Of a stretch of DNA of 64,000 bases, positions 25,989 through 53,077 are shown piece after piece. The notes beneath the pieces are model-generated. The model was not told where the DNA came from. It ran no database searches and saw only the letters and a list, made by a program, of their open reading frames with translations. Source of the DNA: a virus. Lineage: Duplodnaviria; Heunggongvirae; Uroviricota; Caudoviricetes. Each line of letters starts with the position of its first letter. Position 1 is the first letter of the stretch. Where the stretch lies: the IMG/VR virus record IMGVR_UViG_3300042894_004034, positions 1 to 64,000 of that record; one strand, written 5' to 3'. Made by a program: the position numbers and the translations under genes.

Positions 25989-26672
25989 ATGGCAGTCTGG
26001 AGATTATCAACACATTACAAAAAGTCAGCAGTTGAAAAACAGCTCTGGTACAAGGATGGTGTGACAATCAGCAAGGAAGAAGGCTATCGTTGGGGCACGT
26101 TCTATTGCGAAAGTGATGAAATGCCTGATGTTGATCTTGCCAACCCAGACGGCTACGAACTCTACGGCTATGACTGGGAACTGGACAGCCTGGATGATGG
26201 TTGCTGGAGTGACTGGACATTTCCTGAGGATATGAGCGCAGCAGAACGTGAGCAGATTGAAGCTGCCTGGGACCAGGATTTCTCAGACGGACTTGAAGCA
26301 CTGGGCTGGAGTCACAATGATACTGAATACTGGTTTCATGGTCCCTTGCTTATGACCAATGAAACCACTGGTGAAGAGTTTTCAGGCCTGGCAGAAGAAT
26401 CACAAGAAAAAACTGCTCAACAGTTGGCAGCCGAACTTGACGAATTGATTGCTGAAATGCCAGGCATTCCAGACTATGCTGTGAAAACACCTGCGATGAC
26501 TGAGTGGTATGACAGTGATACTCTTCCTGCGCGAACAGGCAGCTACGAAGTTATCACAATGACCTGGCCGTTTGTGATGTTTGCTGACTGGAATGGACGT
26601 GCCTGGCAACGAGAAGGCTTTGCAATCAACCCCTCGGCCTGGCGTGGACTGGCCGAGGATCCTGCCAAATAA
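25989..26672 (+). CDS. highly acidic Trp-rich protein (function unknown; DNA-mimic-like composition)
   Basis: D/E- and W-rich throughout. Confidence 0.45.
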   Translation: MAVWRLSTHYKKSAVEKQLWYKDGVTISKEEGYRWGTFYCESDEMPDVDLANPDGYELYGYDWELDSLDDGCWSDWTFPEDMSAAEREQIEAAWDQDFSDGLEALGWSHNDTEYWFHGPLLMTNETTGEEFSGLAEESQEKTAQQLAAELDELIAEMPGIPDYAVKTPAMTEWYDSDTLPARTGSYEVITMTWPFVMFADWNGRAWQREGFAINPSAWRGLAEDPAK

Positions 26673-26673
26673 T

Positions 26674-26702
26674 TTGACAACAGGCCACAGTGCCTGTATA
26701 AT
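26674..26702 (+). promoter_or_regulatory. consensus sigma70 promoter TTGACA-17-TATAAT
   Basis: Perfect hexamers with 17-nt spacer at the start of a ~190-nt non-coding stretch. Confidence 0.55.
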
Positions 26703-26877
26703 TACTGTGCATGACCAAGGAGATGGTGCTGTTCGATAGTGCGGTGGAATTCCTAGGCCCACTGCTACTGTGGCATGTGAACATAAGTCACGTAGGTTGA
26801 GACACTGTCCTTGAATAAAATCAAAACCCGGCTGGTACCTGGGGGTATGCCAATAAGGACTAACACAGTGAAAGGAT

Positions 26878-27195
26878 ATGTATATGTCTGTTGAAATTGG
26901 GGCCGCTGCGTTGAGCATGTCCGAGTCACTCAGCTCTCTTGAATCAACGCCCTTGGTCATGCACCGTATTTGGTTTGATATCTCAAGCACCGACGTCTGG
27001 TACTCAATCCAGCGTGAAGCAAAAACACTCTATGGCACAGGTTGGAAAAGCCAGTCACGAGTCAAGCGCAAACTAGACAACATCTGGGGCAATCAAACAT
27101 CCTATCCAGTTTGGTTCGATGTGCCTGAACAGTCTTTTGCATCCTGGATCTCGGTAAAGTACGCTGTGAGTGCCAAGATAAAATCCGGTAAATAG
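26878..27195 (+). CDS. hypothetical protein
   Basis: ORF with SD AAAGGA. Confidence 0.4.
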   Translation: MYMSVEIGAAALSMSESLSSLESTPLVMHRIWFDISSTDVWYSIQREAKTLYGTGWKSQSRVKRKLDNIWGNQTSYPVWFDVPEQSFASWISVKYAVSAKIKSGK

Positions 27196-27199
27196 TCTT

Positions 27200-28612
27200 A
27201 TGTTTCTTAGTCTTATAACTCTAGCCGTGGCTCTGAGTCTCAGCGTTATTGCTGCCTACTACAGCATTGCCGGCCTGGCAGCTATATTTGCAGCCGCAGT
27301 GATACCCATCATGATCATGGGATCCATCCTGGAATTGGCCAAGGTGGTTGTGACCATATGGCTGCACGAGTACTGGCCACGAGCCAGATGGTTGATGAAA
27401 ATATACCTGGTGTCTGCTGTGATCATGCTAATGTTGATCACCAGCATGGGCATCTTTGGTTTCTTGTCAAAAGCACACAGTGATCAGAGTCTTGTGAGTG
27501 GCGACAGTCAGGCCAAGGTTTTGATCTTTGATGAAAAAATTCGAACATCCAAAGACAACATTGACGCCAACCGTCGGGCACTTAAACAGATGGATGAAGC
27601 TGTGGACCAGGTCATGGGTCGCAGTGCCGATGAGAAAGGTGCTGAGAAAGCTGTTCAGATCCGCAGATCTCAAAATAAAGAACGTGCTCGTCTCATAGCC
27701 GAAATTGACACTGAGCAGAAAACCGTGGCCAAGCTGAACGAAGAAGCAGCACCACTCCGAGCAGAATTTCGCAAGATCGAAGCTGAAGTAGGTCCAATCA
27801 AGTACATTGCAGCCTTGATCTACGGTGACAATCCTGATGCCAATGTTCTGGAACGTGCAGTACGCTGGGTGATCATGTTGTTGGTTTGTGTATTTGATCC
27901 ACTAGCTATCATGATGCTGTTGGCATCTACAGAAAGTCTCAAGTGGGCACGTGAAGGTCGCACCAGTCGAGTGCTTGAACCTGAGCCACCAGCATATGAA
28001 CCTGATGATGGTCCCATTGATCCAGAAGTACTGGAACAGTTACGTGCTAGAGCACAACAAGACTTGCCCACTGGCGAACTTGTGAGCCGGCAAGAACTAT
28101 TTCCTGAGAACCCGCATCCAGCCGGTTGGATGTTTGAGCCCGACCCACAGCCAGTGCCACAAGCAGCAGAAACAACACTGCCCGACGATGATGACTCCGA
28201 CGAAGAAAGTCCTGAACTCAAAGCAGCCATGACACAATGGAAGGCCGAGAATCCCACAGACACACTCAAACATCAACGAAAATTATTTGACTCTGGGCAG
28301 ATAGAAGAACTGCCTTGGCTAAAGTTTTTGCCATCACATGAACCTACATCTGGATTTGGAACACACCTGCCCGACACTGCTGTAAAAGGTGACAGCTATG
28401 TGTTGACCACAACGATTCCCAATGTGTTGTATAAATTCAACGGCTCCGGCTGGATCAAAGTTGACAATTCTATAAAAGACCAGTATACTTACGACATAGC
28501 ATACATAGATCACTTGATTGTTCAAATTGAAAAAGGATTGTATGATCCTGAGCTTTTGAGTGACAGTGAACGTGATCAAATCGAACAACGCATACAACAA
28601 CTTCCAGAATAA
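27200..28612 (+). CDS. multi-pass membrane protein with central coiled coil and acidic C-terminal domain
   Basis: Four hydrophobic helices at the N-terminus, Q/E/K-rich heptads, [11 protein letters not shown]. Confidence 0.45.
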
Positions 28613-28616
28613 AATA

Positions 28617-29828
28617 ATGATCAAAGAAACCCATTCCTCATGCAGCTTCTGTGGCAAAAATAAAGATGACGTGCGTAAACTTATTGTTGGCGAGTATGCA
28701 GGCATCTGCAACGAGTGCGTGGATTTTTGTCAGGGACTGTTGTCAACTGACGAACCAGTTGTGCCACCCGAACCACCATCAGCCAAACTAGATCCAATGA
28801 TCCTGAAGAACTATCTGGATCAGTATGTGATTGGTCAGGACGCTGCCAAGATCATGATCAGTGTGGCCATTGTGAATCATTACAAACGCATCAGCAAGAC
28901 CACAACTGATCCAGAAATGGACAAAGCCAACATCTTGATGTTAGGACCCACTGGCTCAGGCAAAACTTTGTTGGCCAAGTCAGTGGCACGTTATCTTGAT
29001 GTGCCATTTGCCATTGCTGATGCCACAAGTATCACTGAAGCAGGATATGTGGGTGACGATGTGGAAAGTCTAATCACTAGATTGTATGCTGCATCAGGCA
29101 ACGATGTGGCCAAGACACAGCAGGGTATTGTGTTTGTGGATGAGATTGACAAAATTGCTCGCAAGGGCGAAAGCTCGTCGATCACTAGAGATGTGTCAGG
29201 CGAAGGTGTACAACAGGCCCTGTTAAAAATGGTAGAAGGCACTGTGTGTCGTATTCCAGCAGCAGGTGGTGGCAGAAAGCATCCTGGTGGTGACATGATT
29301 GAAATTGACACTCGCAACATTTTGTTTATTGCTGGTGGCGCATTTGTGGGGCTAGATACCATAGTGAAAAATCGTGTGCAAGGAACCTCCATTGGCTTTA
29401 ACGCCAAGGTTGCAAAAACATCTATTGATACCGATCTGGACATGACCACACCAGATGACCTGGTGAAGTTTGGCATGATTCCGGAATTTGTTGGACGTTT
29501 TCCCAACTGGGTCAGTTTGAAACAACTCAGCAAAGCGGACCTGATTAGAATTCTCACAGAGATCAAGAATAACTATGTGGATCAGTATCGTTGGCTATTT
29601 TCTGAAGATGGCGTGGACTTGACGTTTACTGTGGCGGCACTGGATGAGATTGCGGAGCGCACCTTGGTCAATCAAACTGGTGCACGTGGTCTGCACAGCG
29701 AACTAGAACGTGTGCTGTTGCCGCACATGTTTCATCTTGCACAATACCGCCAGCAAGGCATTGCTGTGCTGTCAATTGACACGGATCAGGTGGCAGAACC
29801 CGAGGAACTCCGGGTTGTAAACAGCTAA
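28617..29828 (+). CDS. clpX: ATP-dependent Clp protease ATPase subunit ClpX
   Basis: N-terminal C4 zinc-binding domain (CSFCG...CNEC). Walker [13 protein letters not shown] pore loop ([10 protein letters not shown]). Walker [10 protein letters not shown]. Start taken at ATG 28617; the table ORF begins at 28560. Confidence 0.85.
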
Positions 29829-29829
29829 A

Positions 29830-30090
29830 ATGTACATTGAATTTGCATGGTCAAAGGATGGTGGCGGTCAGACAGCAGCACATGCAGTGGGCACAGTTTC
29901 TAAAAAACTGGCCACCTGGGCAAACAAGTACAACGTCGAGTACAAGACAAAAATAATCAAATGCAAGTTACGAGTAACTTTTGATTTGGACGAGTATTAC
30001 ACATTGTTTGGGCTGACCTGGGTCTTGGACCCAAAGTACCCAAGCTGGACAAATTACCGACTGATATCTGACCTAAATAACAAAATATAA
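29830..30090 (+). CDS. hypothetical protein
   Basis: ORF. Confidence 0.4.
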   Translation: MYIEFAWSKDGGGQTAAHAVGTVSKKLATWANKYNVEYKTKIIKCKLRVTFDLDEYYTLFGLTWVLDPKYPSWTNYRLISDLNNKI

Positions 30091-30173
30091 TTCTGATCTG
30101 TAGTATAATAAATACTGCGGTAGATGCCCATGGTGGGGTCTACACTAGTCATCTTGCTTAATAGGAGAAAAAC

Positions 30174-30620
30174 ATGACAAAAACTCTCACCCTTCGTAGT
30201 TTCGATATTCCTGCAATTCACAAGTTTGGAATTGGATTTGATAATCTATTTGACGACCTTATGCGTGTCACACAGCATCAAGCCACTACAAACTATCCTC
30301 CCCACAATGTGATCAAAACTGGCGACGACACTGTCACCATTGAAGTTGCTGTGGCTGGATTTGCTGAAGGAGAAATTGATATCAGTCTGGATAAACGTCA
30401 GTTGGTGATCTCTGGTGCCAAAGCAACAGAACAAGATCAAGCTCACGAATATCTACATCGTGGTATTTCACAACGCGACTTTAAACAAACATTCCCACTC
30501 AGTGAGCATGTGGAAGTAAACGGCGCAAGCATCAGCAATGGTATCTTGACTGTGTATCTGGAACGCAAAGTTCCTGAGTCAGCCAAGCCTAAAAGTATTG
30601 CAATCACATACGCAGTATAA
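30174..30620 (+). CDS. small heat-shock protein, Hsp20/IbpA family
   Basis: Alpha-crystallin domain pattern: IEVAVAGFAEGEIDISLDKRQLVISG ... GILTVYLER. SD AGGAGAAAAAC. Confidence 0.8.
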   Translation: MTKTLTLRSFDIPAIHKFGIGFDNLFDDLMRVTQHQATTNYPPHNVIKTGDDTVTIEVAVAGFAEGEIDISLDKRQLVISGAKATEQDQAHEYLHRGISQRDFKQTFPLSEHVEVNGASISNGILTVYLERKVPESAKPKSIAITYAV

Positions 30621-30638
30621 TATAATTGTGTAAATACA

Positions 30639-30983
30639 GTGGTGGAACTGTTCCACCACTCCATAAGGAACAACATGGCAAACGCAGAAGCAGCAACTAT
30701 TTCAAAAACAAAAAAAGCCATCAAGGAGCCGTCTCTTTACCGTGTGATCTATATCAATGACAGCACCACTGCCATGGAATTTGTGATAGAGAGTCTAGTG
30801 GAATTTTTTGGTTATACTGAAGAAACTGCCACAGAACTCACTGTAAGCATACATGAGCACGGATCAGCTATTGTTGCAGTGTTGCCTTATGAAATCGCCG
30901 AACAAAAAGGCGTAGAGGTTACTGAAAGTGCAAGAAAGCAGCAGTATCCATTACAGATCAAACTAGAGCCTGACGCCGAATAA
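30639..30983 (+). CDS. clpS: ClpS adaptor protein
   Basis: Near-colinear with E. coli ClpS: PSLYRVIYINDSTTAMEFVIESLVEFFGY...ATELTVSIHEHG. The second pocket Asp is Ser here (NDS vs NDD). Confidence 0.8.
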   Translation: MVELFHHSIRNNMANAEAATISKTKKAIKEPSLYRVIYINDSTTAMEFVIESLVEFFGYTEETATELTVSIHEHGSAIVAVLPYEIAEQKGVEVTESARKQQYPLQIKLEPDAE

Positions 30984-30991
30984 GTTCGGGA

Positions 30992-31795
30992 TCACGTTTC
31001 TACAACAATTCTTTTGGGAAAATAAGGTGCCTGTTTGTAAGGGGTGTCGCCTCGGCCCCGACAGTTGTTGACAAATCTCACCCCATTTACATTTTGATCC
31101 ACGGCCCCGTGATAGTGACCAAAACACCAGGTATGTATTTTGTGCTCAGTGTCATTGGTGCGTACTAGATTCATGAGTCGATTGCCCATGTGATTAAATT
31201 GTACAGTACCGGCTAGTACAATATCATGTTGTATCAAATTTGCACCCGGTACTGTGTGCGTGACAATCACAATCTTTTTGACATCGTTGTGCGTTTGTAA
31301 TTTTTGTACACTGTTGATCAGATAAGCAGCGTCAGCTCTGGCACAATTGCTAAGTTCTTCAGGGTCAATTGAGTGTCCGGGCATGAATCGTTCATACCAA
31401 TCTACCATGCGTTGTTTGCCCTCGTCTCGACTGATGGATGTGTCCAGATCGTAGCCCCACCAACCATTGGTTCCTAGAATAGCCACACCGTCGATTATTA
31501 TCACGTTTTCCTGGAGATAAGTCACTCTCTGCAATTTGCCTATTGTTCTGGCCAGATCGCGATAGCTTTCTCCTAGCTCATGATATCTGTATCGGTGTTC
31601 ATCATTGCCGTCGATATAAAACACAGCAGCATAACAGTTTGACAGATGTTTCAGTGTGTTTCTTACTATTTTGGGATCTGGACTTATGTCACCTGCTACC
31701 ACACAAACAGGACTGGTGGGCTGACCACTCCAGTTGAATTCTTCAGACCAGGTGTCCAAATGTAGATCAGAAATTAAATCAAAGGTCATGCTCAT
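30992..31795 (-). CDS. calcineurin-like metallophosphoesterase
   Basis: GDISPD, GNDEHRY, GHYHG metal-binding motifs. Confidence 0.6.
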   Translation of the reverse strand: MSMTFDLISDLHLDTWSEEFNWSGQPTSPVCVVAGDISPDPKIVRNTLKHLSNCYAAVFYIDGNDEHRYRYHELGESYRDLARTIGKLQRVTYLQENVIIIDGVAILGTNGWWGYDLDTSISRDEGKQRMVDWYERFMPGHSIDPEELSNCARADAAYLINSVQKLQTHNDVKKIVIVTHTVPGANLIQHDIVLAGTVQFNHMGNRLMNLVRTNDTEHKIHTWCFGHYHGAVDQNVNGVRFVNNCRGRGDTPYKQAPYFPKRIVVET

Positions 31796-33432: not shown

Positions 33433-34671
33433 ATGAAGAATATTGGATTTATTGGAATTGGAAAATTGGGCCTGGACTGTGCAGAAGTTTTTGCTGAACA
33501 GCACACAGTACGGGGATATGATATTTACCCGCGAATCAGTGACTCAGTGAAAGTTTGTGACATAGACGAACTTGTGAATCAAAGCGAGTGGATCTTTATT
33601 GCTGTGCCAACTCCACACCAGGAAGGTTACGATGGATCTGTTCCAAGCAGCCATATGAAACCCAAAGACTTTGGTCACGATGCTGTGATTGACGCTATCA
33701 AGAACATAAACAAATATGCAACTAGTCCAAAAAAGATTGTGTTGATCAGTACAGTATTGCCCGGGACCACACGCCGCAAGTTTTTCCCACTGCTGGATCC
33801 ACAGCATCAGTTCCTGTATAACCCTTATCTAATTGCCATGGGATCGGTCAAATGGGACATGGTCAACCCAGAAATGGTCATGATTGGCACCGAAGATGGC
33901 AACCCCAATGCTCTAGCAGGCGAACTGATTGATCTGTACAAGACTATTATGGCAAACAATCCACGCTACGAAATTGGCACCTGGGACGAATGCGAAGCCA
34001 TTAAAATTTTCTACAACACATTCATCAGTGCCAAAGTTGGTCTGGTCAACATGATTCAGGACTTTGCTCTACGTATTGGACACATCAATGTTGATGTGGT
34101 CACAGATGCCTTGGCTCGTAGTACCATGCGTATCATGGGACCCAAGTACATGACAGCGGGCATGGGCGATGCAGGTGCTTGTCATCCACGTGATAACATT
34201 GCTCTGCGTTGGTTAGCAGAAGAATACAACATTGGCTACGATTTGTTTGATACTGTGATGCATGCTAGAGAAATACAAGCCAAAAACTTGGCTCAGTTCC
34301 TGATTGATCAAGCTGCATTGCACAGTCTGCCTGTGGTGATTCATGGCAAAGCATACAAGCCAGACGTTCCTTATTGCATTGGCAGTTACAGTACCCTGGT
34401 TGGATTTTATCTAGAACAAGCAGGGCACCAAGTGGTCTATATTGATCCTCTTGCAGATGATCGAACCCACGTGGTTGACAGTGTGGATTACCCTGCGGTG
34501 TTTCTTTGGGCACACAATCGCAAAATCACGTATGAATACACTGGCGACCAATTGGATACCCAACCCTACTGTGCTATCAAACCGGGCAGCATTATTGTTG
34601 ATCCTTGGCGCAAACTGACTTCAACTGCGGAGTACGAAGTCGTTCACTATGGCAACACTCGACCAAAATAA
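33433..34671 (+). CDS. UDP-glucose/GDP-mannose dehydrogenase family protein
   Basis: N-terminal Rossmann GFIGIGKLG. Catalytic-Cys motif GDAGACHPRD (cf. GGSCFPKD). 412 aa. Confidence 0.55.
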   Translation: MKNIGFIGIGKLGLDCAEVFAEQHTVRGYDIYPRISDSVKVCDIDELVNQSEWIFIAVPTPHQEGYDGSVPSSHMKPKDFGHDAVIDAIKNINKYATSPKKIVLISTVLPGTTRRKFFPLLDPQHQFLYNPYLIAMGSVKWDMVNPEMVMIGTEDGNPNALAGELIDLYKTIMANNPRYEIGTWDECEAIKIFYNTFISAKVGLVNMIQDFALRIGHINVDVVTDALARSTMRIMGPKYMTAGMGDAGACHPRDNIALRWLAEEYNIGYDLFDTVMHAREIQAKNLAQFLIDQAALHSLPVVIHGKAYKPDVPYCIGSYSTLVGFYLEQAGHQVVYIDPLADDRTHVVDSVDYPAVFLWAHNRKITYEYTGDQLDTQPYCAIKPGSIIVDPWRKLTSTAEYEVVHYGNTRPK

Positions 34672-35170
34672 CATCTGGGTCCAGGGGCATATAGATGTTA
34701 CCTGGGGTCTACAACATCGTGAGCTTGTCTATATAAACGAACAGTTCAATGATCGAGAAAGTCTAGCAGAATGGCGTCAGCTGGGATATACGCAAAGTAA
34801 ATTTACCGGGGACATGTATGACATGCGTTTCCCTGAGCCTGTCTGGATGCAATCTATCTGTGACAAGTTTCCTTGGACCAAGCTAGGATGGAGTGTGTAT
34901 TGTATGTCGCCAGGTACAGTATTACCAGCACACAGAGACAGCTACAACAGATTCAAACTCATACACGGGCTTGAATCAACACAGTCAGTGGTTCGTACCA
35001 TTGTGTTCTTAGAAGACTGGGACAGTGGGCATTACCTGGAAATGAACGGTGCTCCTATTACCAATTGGCGTGCTGGTGATTGGGTCAGCTGGCGCGATGA
35101 TTTCTTACACCTGGCCGCCAACGTTGGCAAAACTGATCGCTATACTCTACAATTAACCGGGACCGCATGA
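34649..35170 (+). CDS. hypothetical protein (possible cupin/2OG-oxygenase-like HxD...H)
   Basis: PAHRDSY ... FLHLAAN. Weak. Confidence 0.3.
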   Translation: MATLDQNNIWVQGHIDVTWGLQHRELVYINEQFNDRESLAEWRQLGYTQSKFTGDMYDMRFPEPVWMQSICDKFPWTKLGWSVYCMSPGTVLPAHRDSYNRFKLIHGLESTQSVVRTIVFLEDWDSGHYLEMNGAPITNWRAGDWVSWRDDFLHLAANVGKTDRYTLQLTGTA

Positions 35171-36096
35171 AAATTTTCAGTCACGATGAATACAGTACAC
35201 TCAAGAGCATAGTGGTCGGCGACGCTAGTCATGCAAACTGGCCTGTCAACGATCCGGTGTTTAGCTCAGAAGCAGAGCGTACACTCTGGAAAGAAACACC
35301 TCTACCTGCTGGTCCTGTGCCACAATGGATCATAGACGAAGCCAATCAAGACCTGCAAACGCTGGCAGACACGTTGACAGCACACGGTGTTGAAGTAGTA
35401 CGTCCGGATCCACTGAATTTTCAGGTCCACGATGGCCTCTACAACTACTGTCCGCGTGATAGACTAATTGTGCATGGGTCAATTGTGGTCGATCCTGCCA
35501 TGATGTATCCTTGTAGAGATATGGAACTACAGTGTTATCATGATATTTTACAAGCAGCAGATCAAGTTATCACAATGCCACGAGCTGCAGGCATGGTTCT
35601 AGACGCTGCTAATATTTTGCGTGTGACACAACACAAGTGGTTGTTTCTTGAATCAGCCTCAGGCAATCGAGCAGCATACGAATGGTTGTGCAATCAGTTT
35701 CCTGATGTGGATATTGAACTGTGCAACTTCTATGCTGGTGTGCATATTGATTCGACTATTGTGGCCTTGAATGCAGAACAATTTGTTGTGAATGGCAGCA
35801 GGCTAGATCGGAATAGAAAAGATCTACCACGACATCTCAAGGGCAAAGAGATATTTTTTGTTGACGAAGTGGTGGCACAAGGATTCTATCAATATCCGTA
35901 TGCTTCAAAATGGATTGGACTCAACATGTTGAGCATTGATCCTCATACAGTCATAGTTGATGCCAAACAACAAGCCATGATACAGGCTCTGGAACAGGGC
36001 ATGGGCATGACAGTTATTCCGCTAGAACTGCGTCACAGCAGAACGCTGGGCGGCGGTTTTCATTGTGTGACTCTAGATCTGCATAGAGAGCCATGA
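35167..36096 (+). CDS. guanidino-group-modifying enzyme superfamily (agmatine deiminase/amidinotransferase-like)
   Basis: C-terminal GGGFHCVTLDL matches the GGG(N/I)HC(I/V)T catalytic-Cys motif of agmatine deiminase/PPAD/amidinotransferases. Confidence 0.5.
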   Translation: MKIFSHDEYSTLKSIVVGDASHANWPVNDPVFSSEAERTLWKETPLPAGPVPQWIIDEANQDLQTLADTLTAHGVEVVRPDPLNFQVHDGLYNYCPRDRLIVHGSIVVDPAMMYPCRDMELQCYHDILQAADQVITMPRAAGMVLDAANILRVTQHKWLFLESASGNRAAYEWLCNQFPDVDIELCNFYAGVHIDSTIVALNAEQFVVNGSRLDRNRKDLPRHLKGKEIFFVDEVVAQGFYQYPYASKWIGLNMLSIDPHTVIVDAKQQAMIQALEQGMGMTVIPLELRHSRTLGGGFHCVTLDLHREP

Positions 36097-36641
36097 ATAT
36101 AGCCTGGCTGTTGGCTGAAAATACTCTGTTGCCGCCGGGTCAGGACACACAACCCATGCGTGACATTGCACCCATCTGGGGCAGCTGGCGCACTCAACGA
36201 GCATATCAAACTGACAATGTGGTGTGCTGGGATGCCGACCAAGCAGCGGTGTTGATCGAGCAAGGCTACGCTGATGTATGCAATCTTTACATTCCAGAAA
36301 CTGTTTATGAAACTCTGCACAAACCGCCGCGTGTTAATGTGTTTGGCGGAGCATTTGATTTTGTTGTGGATTCTGTGGATGACATTGTGGCTGCTCATTT
36401 ATCGGCCAGTGTGGCAGATGTCATAATCATGGTGGGGTTTGACCTGGAATCCAAACCCAACGCAAAGGTCAGCCGAAACAACTATATTGGATTGTTAGCG
36501 CAGTCGATTCGTGACAGCGGAAAACAGTGGGTGATAGTGGATCATCCAAAAAATCTTGACGAGCCTATCCAAAAACTCTCCAATATCACTAGAGATTTAT
36601 TACCAAATGTGTTACAATTACTGAACAACAACAGTGATTGA
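36093..36641 (+). CDS. hypothetical protein
   Basis: ORF. Confidence 0.4.
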   Translation: MNIAWLLAENTLLPPGQDTQPMRDIAPIWGSWRTQRAYQTDNVVCWDADQAAVLIEQGYADVCNLYIPETVYETLHKPPRVNVFGGAFDFVVDSVDDIVAAHLSASVADVIIMVGFDLESKPNAKVSRNNYIGLLAQSIRDSGKQWVIVDHPKNLDEPIQKLSNITRDLLPNVLQLLNNNSD

Positions 36642-37671
36642 TATGACTATACCCCAAATTGGTTTTTGTTGCAAATGGCTCAATGATCCGTCCGAATGCG
36701 GCGGCATGAAAGTCAATGCTGTGGACCGTGAACTAAACGGCCGATCAACCACCATGCGCTGGCTTCGAGAGCACAAGGATGAAGCTGAACAGCGGCAATG
36801 GGACATAATGAATCACAATGCCACAGCAGCAGTTCGCATGATTGAACGAGTGGCTACCCTGCCTGAAGGTCGTAGAATGGTACGGCTGGGTTCAGAAATG
36901 CTGCAAGGCTATACTGAACCTTCATGGATCGACTGGTGGCAGCGCAAAGAGATACAAGATCACTGTGAACGGATCTTTGCTCCTGTGGGCGAAACTGCCC
37001 GCAGACTGGGTGTGCGACTCAGCTTCCATCCCGGACAGTTTTGTGTGCTGGCCAGCGAGCATGACGTGATTGTGGAACGCAGTATCCTGGAATTTGAGTA
37101 TCATGCAGACATGGCCCGCTGGATGGGCTATGGAAAAAGTTGGCATGACTCGGGATTCAAGATAAATGTACATTTAAGTGGCAAAGGTGGTGTCACTAAA
37201 TTCCTAAAGACCTTGGGTCGCCTCAGTTCCGAGGCCAGGAATCTTATCTCCATCGAAAATGACGAAATGACAAATGGCATCGATTCTACTTTACTTGTGG
37301 CTGAGCATGTGGCTCTTGTGCTGGACATACACCATCACTGGATCAACTCCGGAGAATACATCACGCCTGCGGACCCTCGTGCGCAACGGGTTGTTGAGTC
37401 TTGGCGTGGTGTTCGTCCTGCTCTTCACTACAGTGTTAGCCGTGAAGATATTTTGGTGGGTCACGATCACCGAGTTCGACCCGATCTTGCTGGACTACTT
37501 GCAGCAGGTTTTAAAAAGCAGAAGCTCCGGGCACACAGCGATATGATGTGGAACACTGCCTGCAATGAATGGGCCCTGACATTTGGTGATCAGTGGGATA
37601 TTCAGTGTGAGGCCAAGGGCAAGAATCTTGCCAGTGAGCAGGTGTACAATCAGCGACTGGCCCAGACATGA
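36634..37671 (+). CDS. UV-damage endonuclease (UvdE)-like TIM-barrel protein
   Basis: FHPGQF, ENDE, HHH motifs resemble UvdE/xylose-isomerase-like TIM barrel metal sites. Recalled from memory only. Confidence 0.4.
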   Translation: MIDMTIPQIGFCCKWLNDPSECGGMKVNAVDRELNGRSTTMRWLREHKDEAEQRQWDIMNHNATAAVRMIERVATLPEGRRMVRLGSEMLQGYTEPSWIDWWQRKEIQDHCERIFAPVGETARRLGVRLSFHPGQFCVLASEHDVIVERSILEFEYHADMARWMGYGKSWHDSGFKINVHLSGKGGVTKFLKTLGRLSSEARNLISIENDEMTNGIDSTLLVAEHVALVLDIHHHWINSGEYITPADPRAQRVVESWRGVRPALHYSVSREDILVGHDHRVRPDLAGLLAAGFKKQKLRAHSDMMWNTACNEWALTFGDQWDIQCEAKGKNLASEQVYNQRLAQT

Positions 37672-37964
37672 ACGATATACTACCCAACATTTTTTCTTGG
37701 ATACGAGATGACTATAAAACTTACCCTGTGCGTTTTGCAGTTGAGATTGTGGCTTGGGCAGTGTCTATTGGCTGCTCGATCACAATGGCGATCACCGTCC
37801 CAAACCCTCCGTTGTTGTACATGTATCCTATCTGGATCACTGGTTGTGCCATGTATGCTTGGGCTAGTTATACTAGGAAATCTTTTGGTATGCTGGCTAA
37901 CTACATCCTGTTGGTGAGCATAGACATGGTGGGACTGGTTCGCATGATTCTGCAAATTGTGTAA
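37668..37964 (+). CDS. small membrane protein
   Basis: Three hydrophobic segments. Confidence 0.4.
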   Translation: MNDILPNIFSWIRDDYKTYPVRFAVEIVAWAVSIGCSITMAITVPNPPLLYMYPIWITGCAMYAWASYTRKSFGMLANYILLVSIDMVGLVRMILQIV

Positions 37965-37977
37965 CAAAATTGTAACA
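37960..37977 (+). promoter_or_regulatory. Pho-box-like direct repeat TGTAACA-N4-TGTAACA upstream of pstS
   Basis: Two 7-bp repeats at 11-bp periodicity, 39 nt before pstS ATG. Second copy at 39291..39308. Confidence 0.45.
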
Positions 37978-38015
37978 TTTTAGTCATTAAATAAATGTAC
38001 TAACAAGGAGTCAAG

Positions 38016-39011
38016 ATGAAAAAATTATTAGCTATTCTATTATCAGTTGTTGCAGTTTCTGCAACAGCACAAGAAGTTACAGGAGCCGGTGCAACATTTC
38101 CGGCTCCGTTGTATTCAAAGTGGGCTAGTGACTACAACCGCGTGACCAACATCAAAATCAACTATCAGTCAGTTGGCTCAGGTGCAGGTATCAAACAGAT
38201 TGAAGCCAAGACAGTCACGTTTGGTGCAAGTGATATGCCACTCACAGATGATCGACTAAAAGATCTGGGACTATTCCAGTTCCCCACAGCAATTGGCGGC
38301 GTGGTTCCTGTGATCAACGTCAAGGGCATCGAACCTGGACAAATGAAACTCACAGGCACATTGCTTGCTGATATCTTTCTAGGCAAAATTACTCGCTGGG
38401 ATGACGCTGCTATCCGGGCACTAAACCCCTCATTAGCATTACCTGACCAAGCAATCACTGTGGTTCGCAGAGCAGATGGATCAGGAACTACATTTATCTG
38501 GACCAACTATCTCAGCAAGGTATCTAAAGAATTCAAAGACACCATTGGTGAAGGCACAGCAGTCAACTGGAAAGTTGGAGCAGGCGGCAAAGGCAACGAA
38601 GGTGTTGCTGCCATGGTTAGACAACTTCCAGGAACACTGGGCTATGTTGAATTTGCTTATGTAAAACAAACCAAGATGAACTGGGTCAATGTACAGAACG
38701 CTGCTGGCACCTGGGTGGCACCCACAGAAGAATCATTCAAGGCAGCTGCCGCAAATGCTGACTGGAACCGAACATACTTTCAGATTCTAACCAATCAAGC
38801 AGGCAAAGAAGCATGGCCCATCTCAGGTGCTACATTTATCCTAGTGTATTTGAAACCCGAAGATGCTGCTAAATCCAAAACTGCTATTGCTTTCTTTGAC
38901 TGGGCATTTGCCAGTGGAGATCGAGCAGCAGATGACCTAGACTATGTGGCATTGCCTTTAGCAGTGAAGAACAAGATTCGTGCAGACTGGAAACGGTTGG
39001 CACTACACTAA
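38016..39011 (+). CDS. pstS: phosphate ABC transporter substrate-binding protein PstS
   Basis: Signal peptide. TGAGATFPAPLY...SVGSGAGIKQ...GASDMPL...RADGSGTTF PstS hallmarks. SD AAGGAG. Confidence 0.85.
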   Translation: MKKLLAILLSVVAVSATAQEVTGAGATFPAPLYSKWASDYNRVTNIKINYQSVGSGAGIKQIEAKTVTFGASDMPLTDDRLKDLGLFQFPTAIGGVVPVINVKGIEPGQMKLTGTLLADIFLGKITRWDDAAIRALNPSLALPDQAITVVRRADGSGTTFIWTNYLSKVSKEFKDTIGEGTAVNWKVGAGGKGNEGVAAMVRQLPGTLGYVEFAYVKQTKMNWVNVQNAAGTWVAPTEESFKAAAANADWNRTYFQILTNQAGKEAWPISGATFILVYLKPEDAAKSKTAIAFFDWAFASGDRAADDLDYVALPLAVKNKIRADWKRLALH

Positions 39012-39339: not shown

Positions 39340-40104
39340 ATGCAGAAAACTTATCGCAGTATCTTTATCTCAGATGTACATCTTGGTACCAGAGACTGCC
39401 AAGCAGAGAAACTCAACAACTTTCTAAAAAACAACACCTGCGAGACCCTGTATCTTGTGGGAGACATAATAGATGCCTGGCGCATACAACAAAACAAGTG
39501 GCGTTGGAAACAGAGCCATACCAACGTGGTACGCAGAGTGCTAGGTCATGCCAAGCGTGGTACTAGAGTTGTGTATGTGGCCGGCAACCATGACGAATTT
39601 CTAAGGCCCATGATACCATATGGATTTAGTTTCGGACATGTTGAAATACACAATCAGATAGAACACATAGGTGCAGATGGCAATCATTATCTGGTGGTGC
39701 ATGGTGACTTGTTTGATGGCATCACCAGACTGGCGCCCTGGATAGCATTTCTTGGAGATCGAGCATATGATATCATTCTTTCTGTCAACAGCAAGTTCAA
39801 TTGGATACGTCGCCGTATGGGTTTTGGGTACTTTAGCCTTAGCAAGTTTCTTAAGCACAAGGTCAAAAAAGCAGTAGACTTCATGTTCAAGTTTGAAGAA
39901 AATCTAGCAGGCTACTGCAAGAAGCGTGGCTTTGATGGAGTCATCTGTGGACACATACACCACGCAGAGATCAAAGAGATCAACGGAGTTACATACATGA
40001 ATGATGGCGACTGGGTTGAATCATGCACAGCCCTGGTAGAACATCATGATGGTGCATGGGAAATAGTTACTTGGACCCGGGAGACAGACCATGAAAATCA
40101 GTGA
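39340..40104 (+). CDS. LpxH-like metallophosphoesterase (UDP-2,3-diacylglucosamine hydrolase family)
   Basis: N-terminal SIFISDVHLG...LYLVGDIIDAW pattern of the LpxH/YaeI family. GNHD, GHIHH motifs. Confidence 0.55.
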   Translation: MQKTYRSIFISDVHLGTRDCQAEKLNNFLKNNTCETLYLVGDIIDAWRIQQNKWRWKQSHTNVVRRVLGHAKRGTRVVYVAGNHDEFLRPMIPYGFSFGHVEIHNQIEHIGADGNHYLVVHGDLFDGITRLAPWIAFLGDRAYDIILSVNSKFNWIRRRMGFGYFSLSKFLKHKVKKAVDFMFKFEENLAGYCKKRGFDGVICGHIHHAEIKEINGVTYMNDGDWVESCTALVEHHDGAWEIVTWTRETDHENQ

Positions 40105-45972: not shown

Positions 45973-45996
45973 TCTGCGATAATATACGCATAAATA

Positions 45997-46022
45997 AAAG
46001 CAGTCCACTCGGGCTGCTTTTT
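45997..46022 (+). terminator. rho-independent terminator
   Basis: GCAGTCC/GGGCTGC stem, loop ACTC, then TTTTT. Confidence 0.55.
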
Positions 46023-46035
46023 CCACTACAAATTT

Positions 46036-46608
46036 ATGGCCACAGAAACTGAAAATCTAGATCAATCACACACCCAACGGCTGGCCGACTCAGGCATGCT
46101 GGTACTCATGGGTGAAATAGACCATGACAGTATCAAACCAGTGATAGAGTGGATTCTGCATGAAAACTATGTGGTCAAGAAAAAGCGCAAAGAACTCCTG
46201 CTGATGATCTGCTCAGAAGGTGGAGACATGAGTGCTGCCTTTGCACTAATTGATGTCATGCGCAGCAGTGCTATTGCGGTCAAAACAGTGGGACTGGGAC
46301 AGATTGCCAGTGCAGGACTCTTGATATTTCTAGCAGGTTCCCCGGGACGTAGAATCCTTACTCCCAACACCAGTATCCTGAGTCACCAGTTCAGCTGGGG
46401 CAGCGATGGCAAGGTGCATGAATTGTTTGCTACCATGCGTGAATTTGAGCTTACACAAAAGCGCATGATACAGCACTACCGGGACTGTACCGGGCTTGAT
46501 GATGAAACTGTTCGGGCCAAGCTGTTGCCACCACATGATGTTTGGCTTGATGCTACTCAGGCTCTGGAACTGCACATCTGCGATGCAATATCCACACTGG
46601 GACGTTAA
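46036..46608 (+). CDS. ClpP-family (S14) serine protease, second divergent copy (possible prohead/maturation protease)
   Basis: GQIASAGLL (Ser) and LSHQF (His) positioned as in the ClpP catalytic triad. 190 aa. Confidence 0.6.
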   Translation: MATETENLDQSHTQRLADSGMLVLMGEIDHDSIKPVIEWILHENYVVKKKRKELLLMICSEGGDMSAAFALIDVMRSSAIAVKTVGLGQIASAGLLIFLAGSPGRRILTPNTSILSHQFSWGSDGKVHELFATMREFELTQKRMIQHYRDCTGLDDETVRAKLLPPHDVWLDATQALELHICDAISTLGR

Positions 46609-48149
46609 CGACGCTCGCGCCCTAGGGTGGCACGATCCATTCTGGGTTCGCGATTTGTCTTTGCTGCTCGTGCACCAGGACCCGATAGTCTTGGTGTGCC
46701 GGTAACTGCATCTAGATCTTCGGCACCAGTAGCAGCTGGAGCATTGTCCCAACTGGCTTTTCGGTATTCGGTGAGTTTTTCCAACAGCGGACCCTTTTCA
46801 ATGTAAGTGCGAACATAGATACCGCCCTTGGGTTTGTTCTCTACTTTCATCCTGATGGTCAGCAGTTTATTATTAGGGTTATCGCGTTCATGAATGACCA
46901 CTTCTGGCCAAGTTTTTTTATCAACGTAAGTGGCTTCAAGATCTGTATTCTTTAATTTTTCAACCAGCTTGTTGAATCTCAAAATCTTGAATCCACCATC
47001 GCTGAAGTCCACCAGTTCAACATTGGGATCGCCCAGTGTAGCAAAGTGTGTGATACCAGTGGCAATGGCATCAATTATGTTGGCTTCATCTTCAGGTCTG
47101 GCGTTTTTCAATTTGTTGTCTAGTTCGGTAGCAGCATATTGATATATTTGTTTGAATGCATCTCTTGTTGCTGTTGGTGAATTGGATTTCATTGCCTTGG
47201 TAAATTTGGCCAACGCAGAACTTGCATCAACACCAAAATAATTCCACAAGATCTGTTGGGTTTCTGCACTGTCGCCACCCACTTGTCCAAACTGTTTAAT
47301 ACCACCTACCTTGAGACTGGTATTGAGTCTAAGTTTACGTGGCTGGCCATTTTCATCAGTGACAAACACCCACACATCGGTCTTTTGTTCTGTTTCACCT
47401 GTGACGCCATCGGCCATGATCACGATCTGATCTGACCTGCCATTGATATAAAAATACTTGCTGTATCGTTCAGCGTCCGAACTGTTGACATAAGCAGCGG
47501 CACTGGAGAATTCACTGGCCAACAGCGGTCGCTTGGCAGGATCCATGAGATCCTGATACGGCCCGGATTTAAGTCTCAGCACAAACGAAATCACATCCGC
47601 ATGTTCATTATCAAAATCTTCCACTTCCACTTGATATTGATCCTCACCGGTTTGCTTTAAACTGTCAAGCACATTGCCGATGTCCTGAGCGGTCACTGTG
47701 CCGATATCTTCGTCAGATTCACGTTTGGTGAATTTAGCAAACATAGCAGCGCCCAGAATACCTTCGGCTGTTTCGCCGCGATTGGCAATTTTCCCAACAT
47801 CGTCGTCGGCAGTGGCTCCAGTATACACATTAAACGCTGCCCCAATGGTACTAGAACTGCCAACAATCAAAACAGACTGTCCAGCATTATTGGAAAAAAT
47901 ATAACCGTCGCCGCCTTTTCCATATGTAACTGTGGGGAGATTTAAGATATCTTTTTCGCTCAATTCTGTGTCGTCTTGCCTGGTCAATGGCGGAGTAGCA
48001 TCAAATCCTTGTTGCTGCAACAATGTCAGTAACTTTTTTCCAGCTTCTGACCCTGTGGAAACAGAAAATTGAGTGCCAGGTCCATATTTGGGTTTACTGA
48101 TGGTCACCTCAGTTATTATGCTGTCAAGTACGTTGATTAAATCTCTCAT
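46605..48149 (-). CDS. large hypothetical protein ending in LGRERR (virion-associated?)
   Basis: Start taken at ATG 48149 (MRDLINVL); the table ORF extends to 48260. C-terminus ...ATLGRERR. Confidence 0.45.
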   Translation of the reverse strand: MRDLINVLDSIITEVTISKPKYGPGTQFSVSTGSEAGKKLLTLLQQQGFDATPPLTRQDDTELSEKDILNLPTVTYGKGGDGYIFSNNAGQSVLIVGSSSTIGAAFNVYTGATADDDVGKIANRGETAEGILGAAMFAKFTKRESDEDIGTVTAQDIGNVLDSLKQTGEDQYQVEVEDFDNEHADVISFVLRLKSGPYQDLMDPAKRPLLASEFSSAAAYVNSSDAERYSKYFYINGRSDQIVIMADGVTGETEQKTDVWVFVTDENGQPRKLRLNTSLKVGGIKQFGQVGGDSAETQQILWNYFGVDASSALAKFTKAMKSNSPTATRDAFKQIYQYAATELDNKLKNARPEDEANIIDAIATGITHFATLGDPNVELVDFSDGGFKILRFNKLVEKLKNTDLEATYVDKKTWPEVVIHERDNPNNKLLTIRMKVENKPKGGIYVRTYIEKGPLLEKLTEYRKASWDNAPAATGAEDLDAVTGTPRLSGPGARAAKTNREPRMDRATLGRERR

Positions 48150-48179: not shown

Positions 48180-49205
48180 ATGACAGAACCTATAGCAATA
48201 GAATTCAGCGGCGATTGCTGGAATAATCCTACTCAATTTCAACAACAACTTAATCAGCACCCACCTGGAGAACCACTGGTCTTGGACCTACGTGGAGAGG
48301 GTCCTAGCTTGTCGGCACTGGGCATAACCAAATCAATCAACGCCTGGCTCATGGCTAGGAAACAAACTCCTGATACTGTGCAGTTAATAGGATGGAGCAA
48401 TCCTGTAGAATTTGTGCCATACCAGCGTGTGAAATGCAGCAAGATAAGTCATTTTTTCTTCATGGTTCAGGATTATTGGCAACACACAGAACCCACACTA
48501 GAACAACAACTAGAATATCAACAACCTTTTGGATTGTTTGTTGGAAGAATTACACTCAGCAGAGCTGCTATTCTGTATCAAGCACATAGCACTAGTCTTT
48601 TTGCCAGCATGATGAATCACATACAACCATTTCCTTGGAAACGAGAGATAGGTGATGTTCACGATTTAGAAAACATATCAGACTGGTTATCACTGTATGA
48701 TCAGGCCCGGATGTTTGCTTGGTATGATCAACGGATTGTGACCAGTGTGGACAACAAATCAGTAAGAGATCAATTTGCTACTCCTGCATCATCAGCAGAA
48801 ACCAATACTAGTTTGTTGCAGCACTATCACAATTTTGCTGTGGAGATAGTGTGTGAAACTTACACCTTAGGAAATACATTCTTTCCTACTGAAAAAACCA
48901 TACGTCCTATCATGGCTGCCAAACCCATGTTGGTATATGCACCACGTTACTATCTAGCAAGATTGCGCAGCATAGGGTTCCAAACATATCACAGCATCTG
49001 GGATGAAAGTTATGACCTGTATGAAGGTGCCGATCGTTGGCGACTTATGCAACAAAGTATGCGCACCTTGCTGGAGTGCGGCCGTGCAGAACAAAAACGA
49101 ATATTAAGTTTTGCACATGAGATAGCTCAATACAATCGGCAACATCTTGCGGACATTTGTAACAATCAAACCAATATACTAGACCATGATTATTCAAAGA
49201 TTTGA
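48180..49205 (+). CDS. hypothetical enzyme, paralogue family member B
   Basis: C-terminal EKTIRPIMAAKPMLVYAPRYYLARLRSIGFQTYHSIWDESYDLY aligns with A and C. Confidence 0.5.
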   Translation: MTEPIAIEFSGDCWNNPTQFQQQLNQHPPGEPLVLDLRGEGPSLSALGITKSINAWLMARKQTPDTVQLIGWSNPVEFVPYQRVKCSKISHFFFMVQDYWQHTEPTLEQQLEYQQPFGLFVGRITLSRAAILYQAHSTSLFASMMNHIQPFPWKREIGDVHDLENISDWLSLYDQARMFAWYDQRIVTSVDNKSVRDQFATPASSAETNTSLLQHYHNFAVEIVCETYTLGNTFFPTEKTIRPIMAAKPMLVYAPRYYLARLRSIGFQTYHSIWDESYDLYEGADRWRLMQQSMRTLLECGRAEQKRILSFAHEIAQYNRQHLADICNNQTNILDHDYSKI

Positions 49206-50175
49206 CAACGGCTGGGGCTTGCAGTTTCCACTCAAGAAGTTTGAAACACACATAGTTGATCGCATGCTCACGCACATATCTGCCGACTCTTCTAGAACTG
49301 TTGTTATCAATTCTGTATGGTATACCAAACAATATCATGAACAAGTACTGGAATGGTTGCGTAACAATCCAGTTGATTGTATTGTGCTGATTGCCATGTT
49401 AGATGCGGCTATTCCTGCTGCTGATTGGTATAGTGAGTTTGAATGTGAAATATCGACTGTGGGATATTATGCAGGACCACATGCTGTGGATTTTTGTGCA
49501 GTGTTCGTGGATGAATTTTTAAATCCACCATCATTGGATATTCTAATGGATCCGTCTCTGATTGATACAGCCTACATGTGTTTGAATCGCAAGCCACACT
49601 GGCATAGACAAAAGCTGTATCAAAGACTTGAAGCCAGTAACTTGTTGGACCGTGGTATAGTAAGCATGGGAGGCACTGGTTCAGCAGTAAGATCTTTGCC
49701 AACTGATTGCGAGCCGGACAATCTTGCACCCAACGCTGCTGCCACACATTACGGCGTACCCAATGATATAGTGAGTCTGGGCCACATGCAAAATTGGCAA
49801 CGACACCTGGTAAACATTGTGACTGAAACGTTTTTCGATATCAATCAGACTGGATTTGTAAGTGAAAAAATCTACAAACCCATAGTAGGATGTAGACCGT
49901 TTTTGGTGTATGATCCTGATGGCGGCACCCGCTGGCTAACAGATCGAGGGTTTGAACCGTATGTTGCAGACTTTGCGGATATCACCGACTTGAACCTTGC
50001 TGAGCCAGCGGCCATGCACCGATTCCTTGGAGTGTTGTGTGACCAGACACCTGAGTACTGGCAAGCCAAATTTCTTGCTCTTAGTGAAAAAATACTATAC
50101 AATAAACATCACTTCACTGATTATGTTCATAGTCAGAAACAAAAAATCCAAAAAGGAATATCATGCCAAATCTAG
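49186..50175 (+). CDS. hypothetical enzyme, paralogue family member C
   Basis: C-terminal [43 protein letters not shown] aligns with A and B. Confidence 0.5.
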
Positions 50176-53011: not shown

Positions 53012-53077
53012 AGAATATTTAGTAACGCATTTTTGCCAGCATAAAAATACAATCTTGACATTTATTCGATAGTTTGA

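Follow-up and report, generated by a model that had tools for sequence, protein, structure and literature searches.

Clp protease, Hsp20 and ClpS genes, together with a divergent ClpP paralogue, in an uncultured freshwater jumbo phage

Introduction

The viral record IMGVR_UViG_3300042894_004034 raises the question of whether a phage that encodes a ClpX unfoldase, an Hsp20 holdase, a ClpS adaptor and two ClpP-type peptidases might run a proteolytic system of its own, and which parts of that system would depend on the host. The window analyzed here is the whole 64 kb stretch (positions 1 to 64,000 of the record); with a further 10 kb on its right-hand side, ~75 kb of the phage was read, and relatives were read as windows of ~20 kb. 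A preliminary description had placed genes for ClpX, Hsp20, ClpS, ClpP and a second, S14-family protease in the window, and all five open reading frames (ORFs) are present where it had put them and passed profile searches.

28617-29828, + strand: clpX, AAA+ unfoldase with an N-terminal C4 zinc domain, 403 aa from ATG 28617
30174-30620, + strand: hsp20, IbpA-like small heat-shock protein (holdase), 148 aa, with a C-terminal I-A-I motif
30675-30983, + strand: clpS, N-degron adaptor of ClpA/ClpC-type unfoldases; full ORF 30639-30983
46036-46608, + strand: divergent ClpP paralogue (S14), 190 aa, catalytic triad intact, axial-loop motif and aromatic IGF pocket gone
50163-50753, + strand: clpP, canonical ClpP peptidase subunit, 196 aa

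The reading which we favor, with moderate confidence, is that the phage would make its own ClpXP, Hsp20, a ClpS working with host ClpA, and a mixed peptidase composed of ClpP and its paralogue.

ClpX and ClpP

ClpX scored 505.6 bits against the NCBIfam equivalog model NF003745 (cutoff 359) and 484.7 against TIGR00382 (cutoff 370.75), and contained the Pfam domains zf-C4_ClpX (48.4 vs 27), AAA_2 and ClpB_D2-small. The C4 zinc domain and GYVG pore loop previously read in this protein were both recovered by alignment to E. coli ClpX, the former also by Pfam. The zinc motif CSFCG...ICNEC, with its four cysteines, aligned with that of the E. coli protein, and alignment to PDB 8e91 located the Walker A motif (GPTGSGKT), Walker B, the GYVG pore-1 loop, the RKH loop, the IGF docking loop (GTSIGF) and the GARGL sensor-2 arginine motif. 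Across ClpX proteins of the clade GYVG was present in 95/95 sequences and RKH in 86/95, with a docking loop in 93/95 (IGF 75, MGF 17, LGF 1).

The description of ClpP as near-canonical and of the S14 protein as divergent also stands. ClpP passed the subfamily model NF001368 (309.5 vs a cutoff of 249) and NF009205 (249.2 vs 228) and fell just below the strict equivalog TIGR00493 (297.0, cutoff 308.6), whereas the paralogue was under the cutoff of all NCBIfam ClpP models, its best score being 92.2 vs 228. In an alignment of both peptidases with E. coli ClpP (A2) the columns of the Ser-His-Asp triad (S111, H136 and D185 of the E. coli precursor) were invariant in ClpP, the N-terminal axial loop (LVPIVVE...) was conserved, and the positions Y62, F82, I90, M92, F112 and L114 of the pocket that receives the IGF loop (E. 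coli numbering) were kept. Because ClpX carries an IGF docking loop and ClpP has kept its triad, axial loop and most pocket positions, the two are predicted from sequence to have all the features of a self-contained ATP-dependent protease, with complex formation and unfolding likewise predicted.

Phage origin and conservation of the gene set

The window derives from an uncultured jumbo phage of freshwater origin, a distant relative of the PA5oct type, which infects Pseudomonas. Profile searches identified replication and nucleotide metabolism genes (a DnaB-type helicase, class Ia ribonucleotide reductase (RNR) and an ATP-dependent DNA ligase), together with a tail-spike-like protein and a DUF6267 protein. 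Local tblastn showed the window to be collinear with PA5oct positions 146.9-181 kb (~35 kb) at 23-54% identity, the common order being helicase, virion protein, exonuclease, RNR alpha and beta, hub lysozyme, ClpX, Hsp20, ClpS and ClpP. A megablast search with 27-33 kb found no match among deposited phages; relatives were recovered at the protein level only. When ClpX was used as a query, 235 relatives were found on IMG/VR viral contigs, and the best 80 of these matches, at 64-98% identity, were fetched for comparison. The related IMG/VR viral contigs number in the hundreds and are 100-350 kb long (the longest bearing ClpX is 352 kb), and an identical ClpP sequence is present on contigs from freshwater-lake metagenomes.

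That the contig might instead be host chromosome or a prophage remnant, with the Clp genes being ordinary cellular genes, is suggested by the closeness of its proteins to bacterial housekeeping homologues, ClpP for example being 66% identical to E. coli ClpP. This was judged extremely improbable: the collinear PA5oct is a cultured lytic jumbo phage, the relatives lie on hundreds of long viral contigs, and the window has a coding density of 95%, with nearly all genes on one strand, numerous small ORFans and no tRNA, rRNA or Rfam RNA in tRNA and Rfam scans. The gene order also differs from that of bacteria, where clpP-clpX and clpS-clpA form operons; in the window clpS lies beside clpX and hsp20, clpP is 20 kb away and no clpA was found. 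The earlier assignment of the contig to a phage is thus upheld, the check for host chromosome being negative.

Around clpX a block of seven genes is conserved, consisting of a 470-aa membrane protein, ClpX, a variable small ORF, Hsp20, ClpS, a convergent metallophosphoesterase and orf118, with order and orientation kept in essentially all 80 viral loci. Conservation in ~80 loci makes this a gene cluster far beyond chance. Purifying selection acts on each of the five proteostasis genes: median pairwise dN/dS is 0.13 for clpX, hsp20, clpP and the paralogue gene and 0.08 for clpS (range 0.08-0.13), ratios that are conservative because dS is near saturation. The clpX-hsp20-clpS arrangement is therefore no one-off but a conserved unit under purifying selection, common to hundreds of environmental jumbo-phage contigs and PA5oct.

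ClpS and its unfoldase

The likely start of clpS is ATG 30675, as an AAGGA ribosome-binding site lies 6 nt upstream. The protein scored 87.7 bits against Pfam ClpS (PF02617; cutoff 23), matched structures of E. coli and Caulobacter ClpS at 3e-19 to 5e-19 and is 41% identical to E. coli ClpS. It fell below the cutoff of all ten NCBIfam ClpS equivalogs (best NF000669, 89.4 vs 149) and is, by these sequence comparisons, a divergent member of the family. The preliminary description had treated ClpXP and ClpS as one machine. This does not hold, since ClpS is an adaptor of ClpA (ClpC in some lineages) and not of ClpX, docking on the ClpA/ClpC N-domain, and the docking residues E79 and K84 are invariant in an alignment of the window protein with those of E. 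coli, PA5oct and four clade members (A1). An N-terminal extension of ~19 residues, counted from ATG 30675, is also present. E79, K84 and the flexible N-terminal extension serve docking to the ClpA N-domain and substrate hand-off.

It had further been noted that the binding pocket reads N-D-S where E. coli has N34-D35-D36, and that substrate specificity might differ. Alignment A1 agrees with the reading of the residues; a distinctive switch of specificity finds no such agreement, position 36 being variable and the pocket core residues N34, D35, T38, M40 and H66 invariant. Across 91 ClpS matches the motif is mostly NDN, as in PA5oct, with some NDD or NDE, and NDS is limited to the window and its 98%-identical relative L006. 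NDS as a clade-defining change of specificity was rejected, being confined to these two sequences. D36 is reported to provide a rim charge disfavoring acidic residues at P2-P5 (PMC12258705), and the ClpS triple mutant D35A/D36A/H66A loses binding (PMC9810338). Asparagine or serine at position 36 would likely relax discrimination against acidic downstream residues, with no new N-terminal specificity.

As ClpS would need a ClpA-type partner, a ClpA gene was sought in over 300 related loci. None turned up in the window, in the 10 kb beyond its right end, in the loci flanking ClpX, ClpP and the paralogue (tblastn with PA5oct and E. coli ClpA queries), or, for 80 close relatives, within 10 kb on either side of the superoxide dismutase (SOD) gene used as a marker. 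Viral contigs were scanned twice, with PA5oct ClpA and with the ClpA of a family-related contig as queries, taking the best 80 of at least 600 matches each time; of the 160 ClpA-bearing loci so obtained, none is on a contig known to carry the ClpX module, and 19 ClpX-module contigs are at least 100 kb long. DnaJ adjoins ClpA in 124 of 158 viral ClpA loci (L249-L328 and L416-L493), as it does in PA5oct, and ClpS, Hsp20 and ClpP never occur in the flanks of these 158; DnaJ-ClpA therefore looks to be another jumbo-phage chaperone module, independent of ClpX-Hsp20-ClpS. Since no phage ClpA was found, the likeliest partner of ClpS is the ClpA of the host.

The lack of a detected phage ClpA and the invariance of the ClpA-docking residues would also suit a ClpS that acts as an inhibitor or decoy, blocking or diverting host ClpAP and thereby shielding phage proteins or disabling a ClpAP-dependent host response. 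E. coli ClpS inhibits degradation by ClpAP of ssrA-tagged and other substrates, and of ClpA itself. A pure blocker, however, would need neither the invariant pocket core nor the selective constraint seen in clpS (dN/dS 0.08), and the N-terminal extension used for hand-off is retained; we consider this explanation improbable. The Atu_ph07 paper summarizes Dougan 2002 only as ClpS modifying the substrate specificity of ClpAP (PMC6102473).

The divergent ClpP paralogue

The paralogue scored 97 bits against Pfam CLP_protease (cutoff 20.2). In alignment A2 its Ser-His-Asp triad is invariant, the N-terminal axial-loop segment (LVPxVxE/GERS) is missing, and the aromatic pocket residues Y60, Y62, F82 and F112 have given way to L, M, S and I. 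The closest PDB matches are ClpP1-type subunits of the Listeria and Mycobacterium ClpP1P2 proteases. The family is large in environmental data, with 4,450 proteins at E <=1e-10, all of ~190 aa, and homologues occur in cultured phages, at ~50% identity in Sinorhizobium phage Phosso and Synechococcus phage BUCT-ZZ01 and at 35% in Ralstonia phage RsoM2USA.

Of 80 loci centered on the paralogue, 71 have a canonical clpP on the same strand no more than 5 kb downstream. The gap between the two has a mode of ~1.6 kb and contains an antisense gene; in 4 loci it is only 25-108 bp. In the window the intervening gene is the following.

46605-48149, - strand: 514-aa antisense gene between the two peptidase genes; PHROG 3560 (unknown function), 5.7e-38

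The 514-aa protein gave no Pfam match, and homologues of its gene occupy the paralogue-clpP gap in at least 40 loci; the arrangement of paralogue, 514-aa antisense gene and clpP looks ancestral for the clade. In bacterial ClpP1P2, ATPases dock on one ring only. Listeria monocytogenes and Mycobacterium tuberculosis encode their two paralogues close together, as the window does, and here too the docking features are, as far as sequence indicates, confined to the canonical paralogue. The phage system differs in that its paralogue has a full triad and is missing the whole N-terminal loop segment, and in that a mixed complex is putative. The linkage in 71/80 loci, together with the complementary loss of docking features, suggests that paralogue and ClpP may form a ClpP1P2-like mixed complex of which only the canonical ring would dock ClpX.

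The paralogue could instead be an independent, ATPase-free peptidase, or a partner of a host unfoldase or of host ClpP. Its ~50% identical homologue in BUCT-ZZ01, a phage missing among the phage-ClpP matches listed, is consistent with this, as are its occurrence in only 17/80 ClpP-centered loci and the unrelated antisense gene that usually separates it from clpP. The same-strand proximity of clpP in most paralogue loci, down to 25-108 bp in four, argues for partnership with phage ClpP, and a ring of the paralogue alone would lack the axial loop and docking pocket needed to serve a Clp ATPase. We regard independence as rather unlikely.

A further alternative concerns both peptidases. ClpP and/or the paralogue might be head-maturation (prohead) proteases, with ClpX and Hsp20 acting as chaperones or translocases in virion assembly and not on host proteins. 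RefSeq labels the ClpP homologues of PA5oct and Atu_ph07 'head maturation protease', and both window peptidases match PHROG head-maturation families, although these matches are the same families for both and PHROG cannot tell ClpP from head-maturation proteases. Model NF045542 gave scores below its cutoff of 120 for both (ClpP 105.9, paralogue 52.3), whereas the canonical protein passes a ClpP model. Neither gene is near portal, scaffold or capsid genes, the neighbors being lipoprotein-like or of unknown function, and no head-morphogenesis context was seen in the paralogue neighborhoods of Phosso and BUCT-ZZ01. The axial loops of ClpP and the IGF loops of ClpX are features of ATP-dependent proteases. 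The paralogue also occurs in a phage of the Kyanoviridae (T4-like), whose heads are matured by a gp21-type protease. Iyer et al. suggest that phage ClpA/ClpX may aid virion assembly (PMC7824862); phage G, with adjacent ClpP and ClpX that were both detected by mass spectrometry, has a separate head-maturation protease (PMC12484599). A role in head maturation is accordingly regarded as unlikely.

Hsp20

Hsp20 matched Pfam HSP20 (PF00011) at 3.5e-16 (59.6 bits vs a cutoff of 20.8) and PHROG 432 'Hsp20' at 2e-39, and its C-terminus, ...KSIAITYAV, holds I-A-I as an I-x-I motif. Its score against the IbpA equivalog model was 118 bits, below the cutoff of 212, and it is therefore not an IbpA orthologue. 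Comparison with the closest relative, L006, showed ~91% DNA identity on the flanks 26468-30318 and 30585-30983, and no detectable DNA similarity across hsp20 positions 30319-30584 (~265 bp), which encode the alpha-crystallin core; the N- and C-termini of the protein are conserved. The core of Hsp20 is thus swapped in the manner of a cassette between close relatives, which accounts for the bimodal Hsp20 identities in the clade (about 50-59% vs 71-84%).

Proposed mechanism

Under the reading we favor, phage ClpX and ClpP would assemble during infection and degrade selected host or phage proteins as well as tagged or misfolded chains, and Hsp20 would keep unfolding or surplus virion proteins recoverable. 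ClpS would bypass ClpX and plug into a ClpA-type unfoldase, most probably that of the host, redirecting host ClpAP toward N-degron substrates and off its other substrates. The divergent paralogue and canonical ClpP would form a mixed complex like ClpP1P2 of Listeria and Mycobacterium, with ClpX on the canonical ring only. Overall, proteolysis and folding capacity would come under phage control through a long, protein-heavy jumbo-phage infection.

Several points weigh against this account. Assembly, substrates and timing are all inferred. The genes clpX and clpP are 20 kb apart and not co-transcribed, and ClpP has a serine at the pocket position of E. coli Tyr60, where S, L, N or H is found across the clade; this replacement may give a different or tuned docking geometry. 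ClpA is present in more distant relatives, namely PA5oct, Atu_ph07 and the viral contigs L283, L291, L299 and L303, which share flanking genes, and at partial genome coverage the absence of ClpA is unproven, the gene being possibly absent from the clade. The presence of ClpA in the host is an assumption. With respect to the mixed complex, the occurrence of the paralogue in the T4-like cyanophage BUCT-ZZ01 indicates that it may not be strictly dependent on phage ClpP, and an AlphaFold2 model of the paralogue from a 31-sequence alignment was unusable (mean pLDDT 56, pTM 0.48); the alignment was too shallow (73-93% identity).

A bolder version, which we put forward tentatively and with more doubt than belief, is an asymmetric phage protease, comprising a ClpP ring that docks ClpX and a paralogue ring, alongside a neutral-rim ClpS (N or S for D36) that captures host ClpA and widens N-degron recognition to substrates in which acidic residues follow. 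If true, asymmetric protease and ClpS capture would be two separate phage routes into host proteolysis, and the former a viral counterpart of ClpP1P2. The most interesting remaining lead is the pair of ClpP and its paralogue, the latter being a very abundant phage relative of ClpP whose gene is linked to clpP and which may join ClpP in a mixed peptidase. Should phage ClpXP and ClpS re-target host proteolysis, this would represent a widespread host-takeover strategy among large phages.

Comparison with known systems

The preliminary description had considered a Clp set with Hsp20 in one phage not well described. This is not the case: the clpX-hsp20-clpS-clpP set is already annotated in cultured jumbo phages, and the window is a further example. 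The paper on Atu_ph07 names ClpX, a ClpP-like protein, a Clp ATPase, ClpA, ClpB, ClpP and ClpS (PMC6102473), AP-J-162 has six Clp ORFs, Hsp20, DnaJ and GroES (PMC11242549), and the survey of Iyer et al. 2021 records ClpP, ClpS, ClpX, ClpA and Hsp20 in jumbo phages and predicts that phage ClpS delivers targets to host ClpAP (PMC7824862). No published work testing the function of phage-encoded Clp components was found.

In PA5oct (vB_PaeM_PA5oct, Arenbergviridae; MK797984, EST35_0255-EST35_0272) the annotation gives ClpX at 169742-170968, S21 and two hypothetical genes, a heat shock protein at 172055-172486 and ClpS at 172602-172904, along with FtsH, DNA ligase, ClpP at 180349-181020 (7.5 kb downstream), a chaperonin, DnaJ and ClpA at 193623-195842. 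The order ClpX, small variable ORFs, Hsp20, ClpS and downstream ClpP is that of the window, and a metallophosphoesterase and an ATP-dependent DNA ligase are nearby in both, the PA5oct metallophosphoesterase lying 4 kb upstream of clpX. Both phages have a ClpS residue other than Asp at position 36 and a ClpP serine at the Tyr60 position. However, the four proteins of PA5oct are only 31-53% identical to those of the window, none of the FtsH, DnaJ, ClpA and chaperonin genes of its region was found in the window, and no counterpart of the divergent paralogue was present in the 100 kb of PA5oct examined. In its ClpP (L247 1349-2017), moreover, 10 residues (GTTQQVELGI) are inserted behind the catalytic His, in the handle region; window and E. 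coli ClpP do not have them. Being cultured, PA5oct is a practical experimental model for the clpX-hsp20-clpS block.

The Rak2-like Agrobacterium phage Atu_ph07 and Sinorhizobium phages Phosso and AP-J-162 have been reported to unite in a single genome ClpX, ClpP, a further ClpP-like protein, Hsp20 and ClpS (PMC6102473, PMC7824862, PMC11242549). Identity to the window proteins is 65-70% for ClpP and 47-49% for ClpX, and 50% for the paralogue homologue of Phosso; they differ in that the genes are dispersed over 470-490 kb and are accompanied by ClpA, ClpB and DnaJ. Compared with the E. coli K-12 systems (ClpXP, ClpS-ClpAP and IbpA/B), the window lacks none of the motifs that define ClpX, ClpP and the core of ClpS, and differs, besides gene order, in D36 to S of ClpS and Y60 to S of ClpP.

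Neighboring genes

The immediate neighbors of the proteostasis genes are as follows.

27200-28612, + strand: 470-aa predicted membrane/coiled-coil protein, conserved neighbor upstream of clpX, with TAAATA-N5-ATG before its start
29830-30090, + strand: 86-aa ORF (orf86), variable slot between clpX and hsp20
30992-31795, - strand: metallophosphoesterase, convergent neighbor of clpS; PHROG 1649, 3e-28

By tblastn, homologues of the 470-aa protein with 43-90% identity lie directly upstream of clpX in nearly all 80 loci; the protein gave no significant family in Pfam or PHROG. Its gene stops 4 nt before the clpX start, the clpP start overlaps an upstream ORF and the ORF downstream begins at the clpP stop codon, and from this layout clpX and clpP both look translationally coupled into larger units. 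Conservation of orf86 is patchy among the 80 loci and nothing was matched in Pfam, NCBIfam or PHROG; that it might be a homologue of S21, which occupies this slot in PA5oct, was rejected for want of a family match. The place and orientation of the metallophosphoesterase are kept in nearly all 80 loci. In L006 (5337-5850) there are ~500 bp extra between clpS and this gene, compared with only 8 bp in the window, and a second metallophosphoesterase is encoded in the window at 39340-40104.

The clpP gene sits in a lineage-specific cluster (48180-53014) with overlapping starts and stops, and most relatives are without these genes around clpP. The cluster includes two ORFs of 341 and 329 aa that are distant paralogues of each other (28% identity over 124 aa) and match no family, a 380-aa ORF whose SGGVDT motif is similar to a PP-loop (no Pfam match) and a radical SAM protein on the minus strand.

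Regulatory elements

Four candidate elements were located in the clpX-hsp20-clpS region.

28461-28489, + strand: sigma-70-like promoter match TTGACA-17-TATACT (11/12), lying 128 nt before clpX and inside the 3' end of the preceding gene
30102-30115, + strand: AGTATAATAAATAC promoter-like element upstream of hsp20, with a weak hairpin and the ribosome-binding site AGGAG after it
30614-30637, + strand: AGTATAATATAATTGTGTAAATAC promoter-like element in the clpS leader, ending in clade-invariant GTAAATA
30639-30659, + strand: perfect 9-bp stem-loop GTGGTGGAA-CTG-TTCCACCAC, GC-rich, in the clpS leader directly after GTAAATA

Sigma-70 sites were not enriched in the region (15 vs 11.0 +/- 3.2 in shuffled sequence) and the clpX site is only a lead; the hairpin upstream of hsp20 was not significant (z = -0.6). 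The sequence AGTATAATA occurs three times in the window vs 0.27 expected, and two of the three copies precede hsp20 and clpS. In the clpS leader TAAATA is invariant in 35 distinct clade sequences (from leaders L006-L085), and the hairpin that follows has z = -3.1 vs shuffles and shows double compensatory changes at 7/7 consensus pairs in the same 35 sequences, one stem position for example being CG in 16, GC in 7, UA in 4 and AU in 4. The hairpin gave no Rfam match, and an intrinsic terminator was rejected as there is no T-run after it; our best guess is a 5'-terminal stabilizing stem-loop downstream of a phage promoter. TAAATA with a strong terminator-like hairpin (z = -5.3), together at 45991-46021, also precedes the paralogue gene, and the same layout of TAAATA followed by a hairpin is found before the gene at 6351.

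The spacing TAAATA-N0-5-ATG occurs 16 times in the window vs 3.4 +/- 1.6 expected, a count reached in 0/100 shuffles, with sites including 12715, 16875, 22896, 27189, 39330, 48159(-), 53021(-) and 62109. Genes starting in this way include those for RNR alpha, DNA ligase, the protein upstream of clpX, the antisense 514-aa protein and the radical SAM protein, and TAAATA-ATG may act as a promoter or a translation-start signal specific to the phage. The motif is similar to that of T4 late promoters, TATAAATA. The clpS leader is also reminiscent of the T4-type PeSL cassettes, in which an AT-rich promoter-like sequence, here TATAAT...GTAAATA, is followed by a stable stem-loop between genes; the window motif differs from those of the T4 late promoter and PeSLs, and by this analogy a role in shuffling or transcript stability would be putative.

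Other genes

At 33433-39011 the window has genes of an auxiliary type that is typical of aquatic phages; they encode UDP-glucose dehydrogenase (33433-34671), a protein resembling Asp/Arg hydroxylase (34649-35170), the UV endonuclease UvdE (36634-37671) and a phosphate-binding PstS-like protein (38016-39011). Beyond the right end of the window, 10 kb of the same phage (L331 10427-20426) contain genes for NAD synthase, a cell-wall hydrolase, a methyltransferase, a WYL-domain protein, an IF-1-like protein, Fe/Mn SOD and an Fe-S assembly protein. A GroES-like co-chaperonin is encoded 8-10 kb past the SOD gene in 14/80 relatives (L336-L415).

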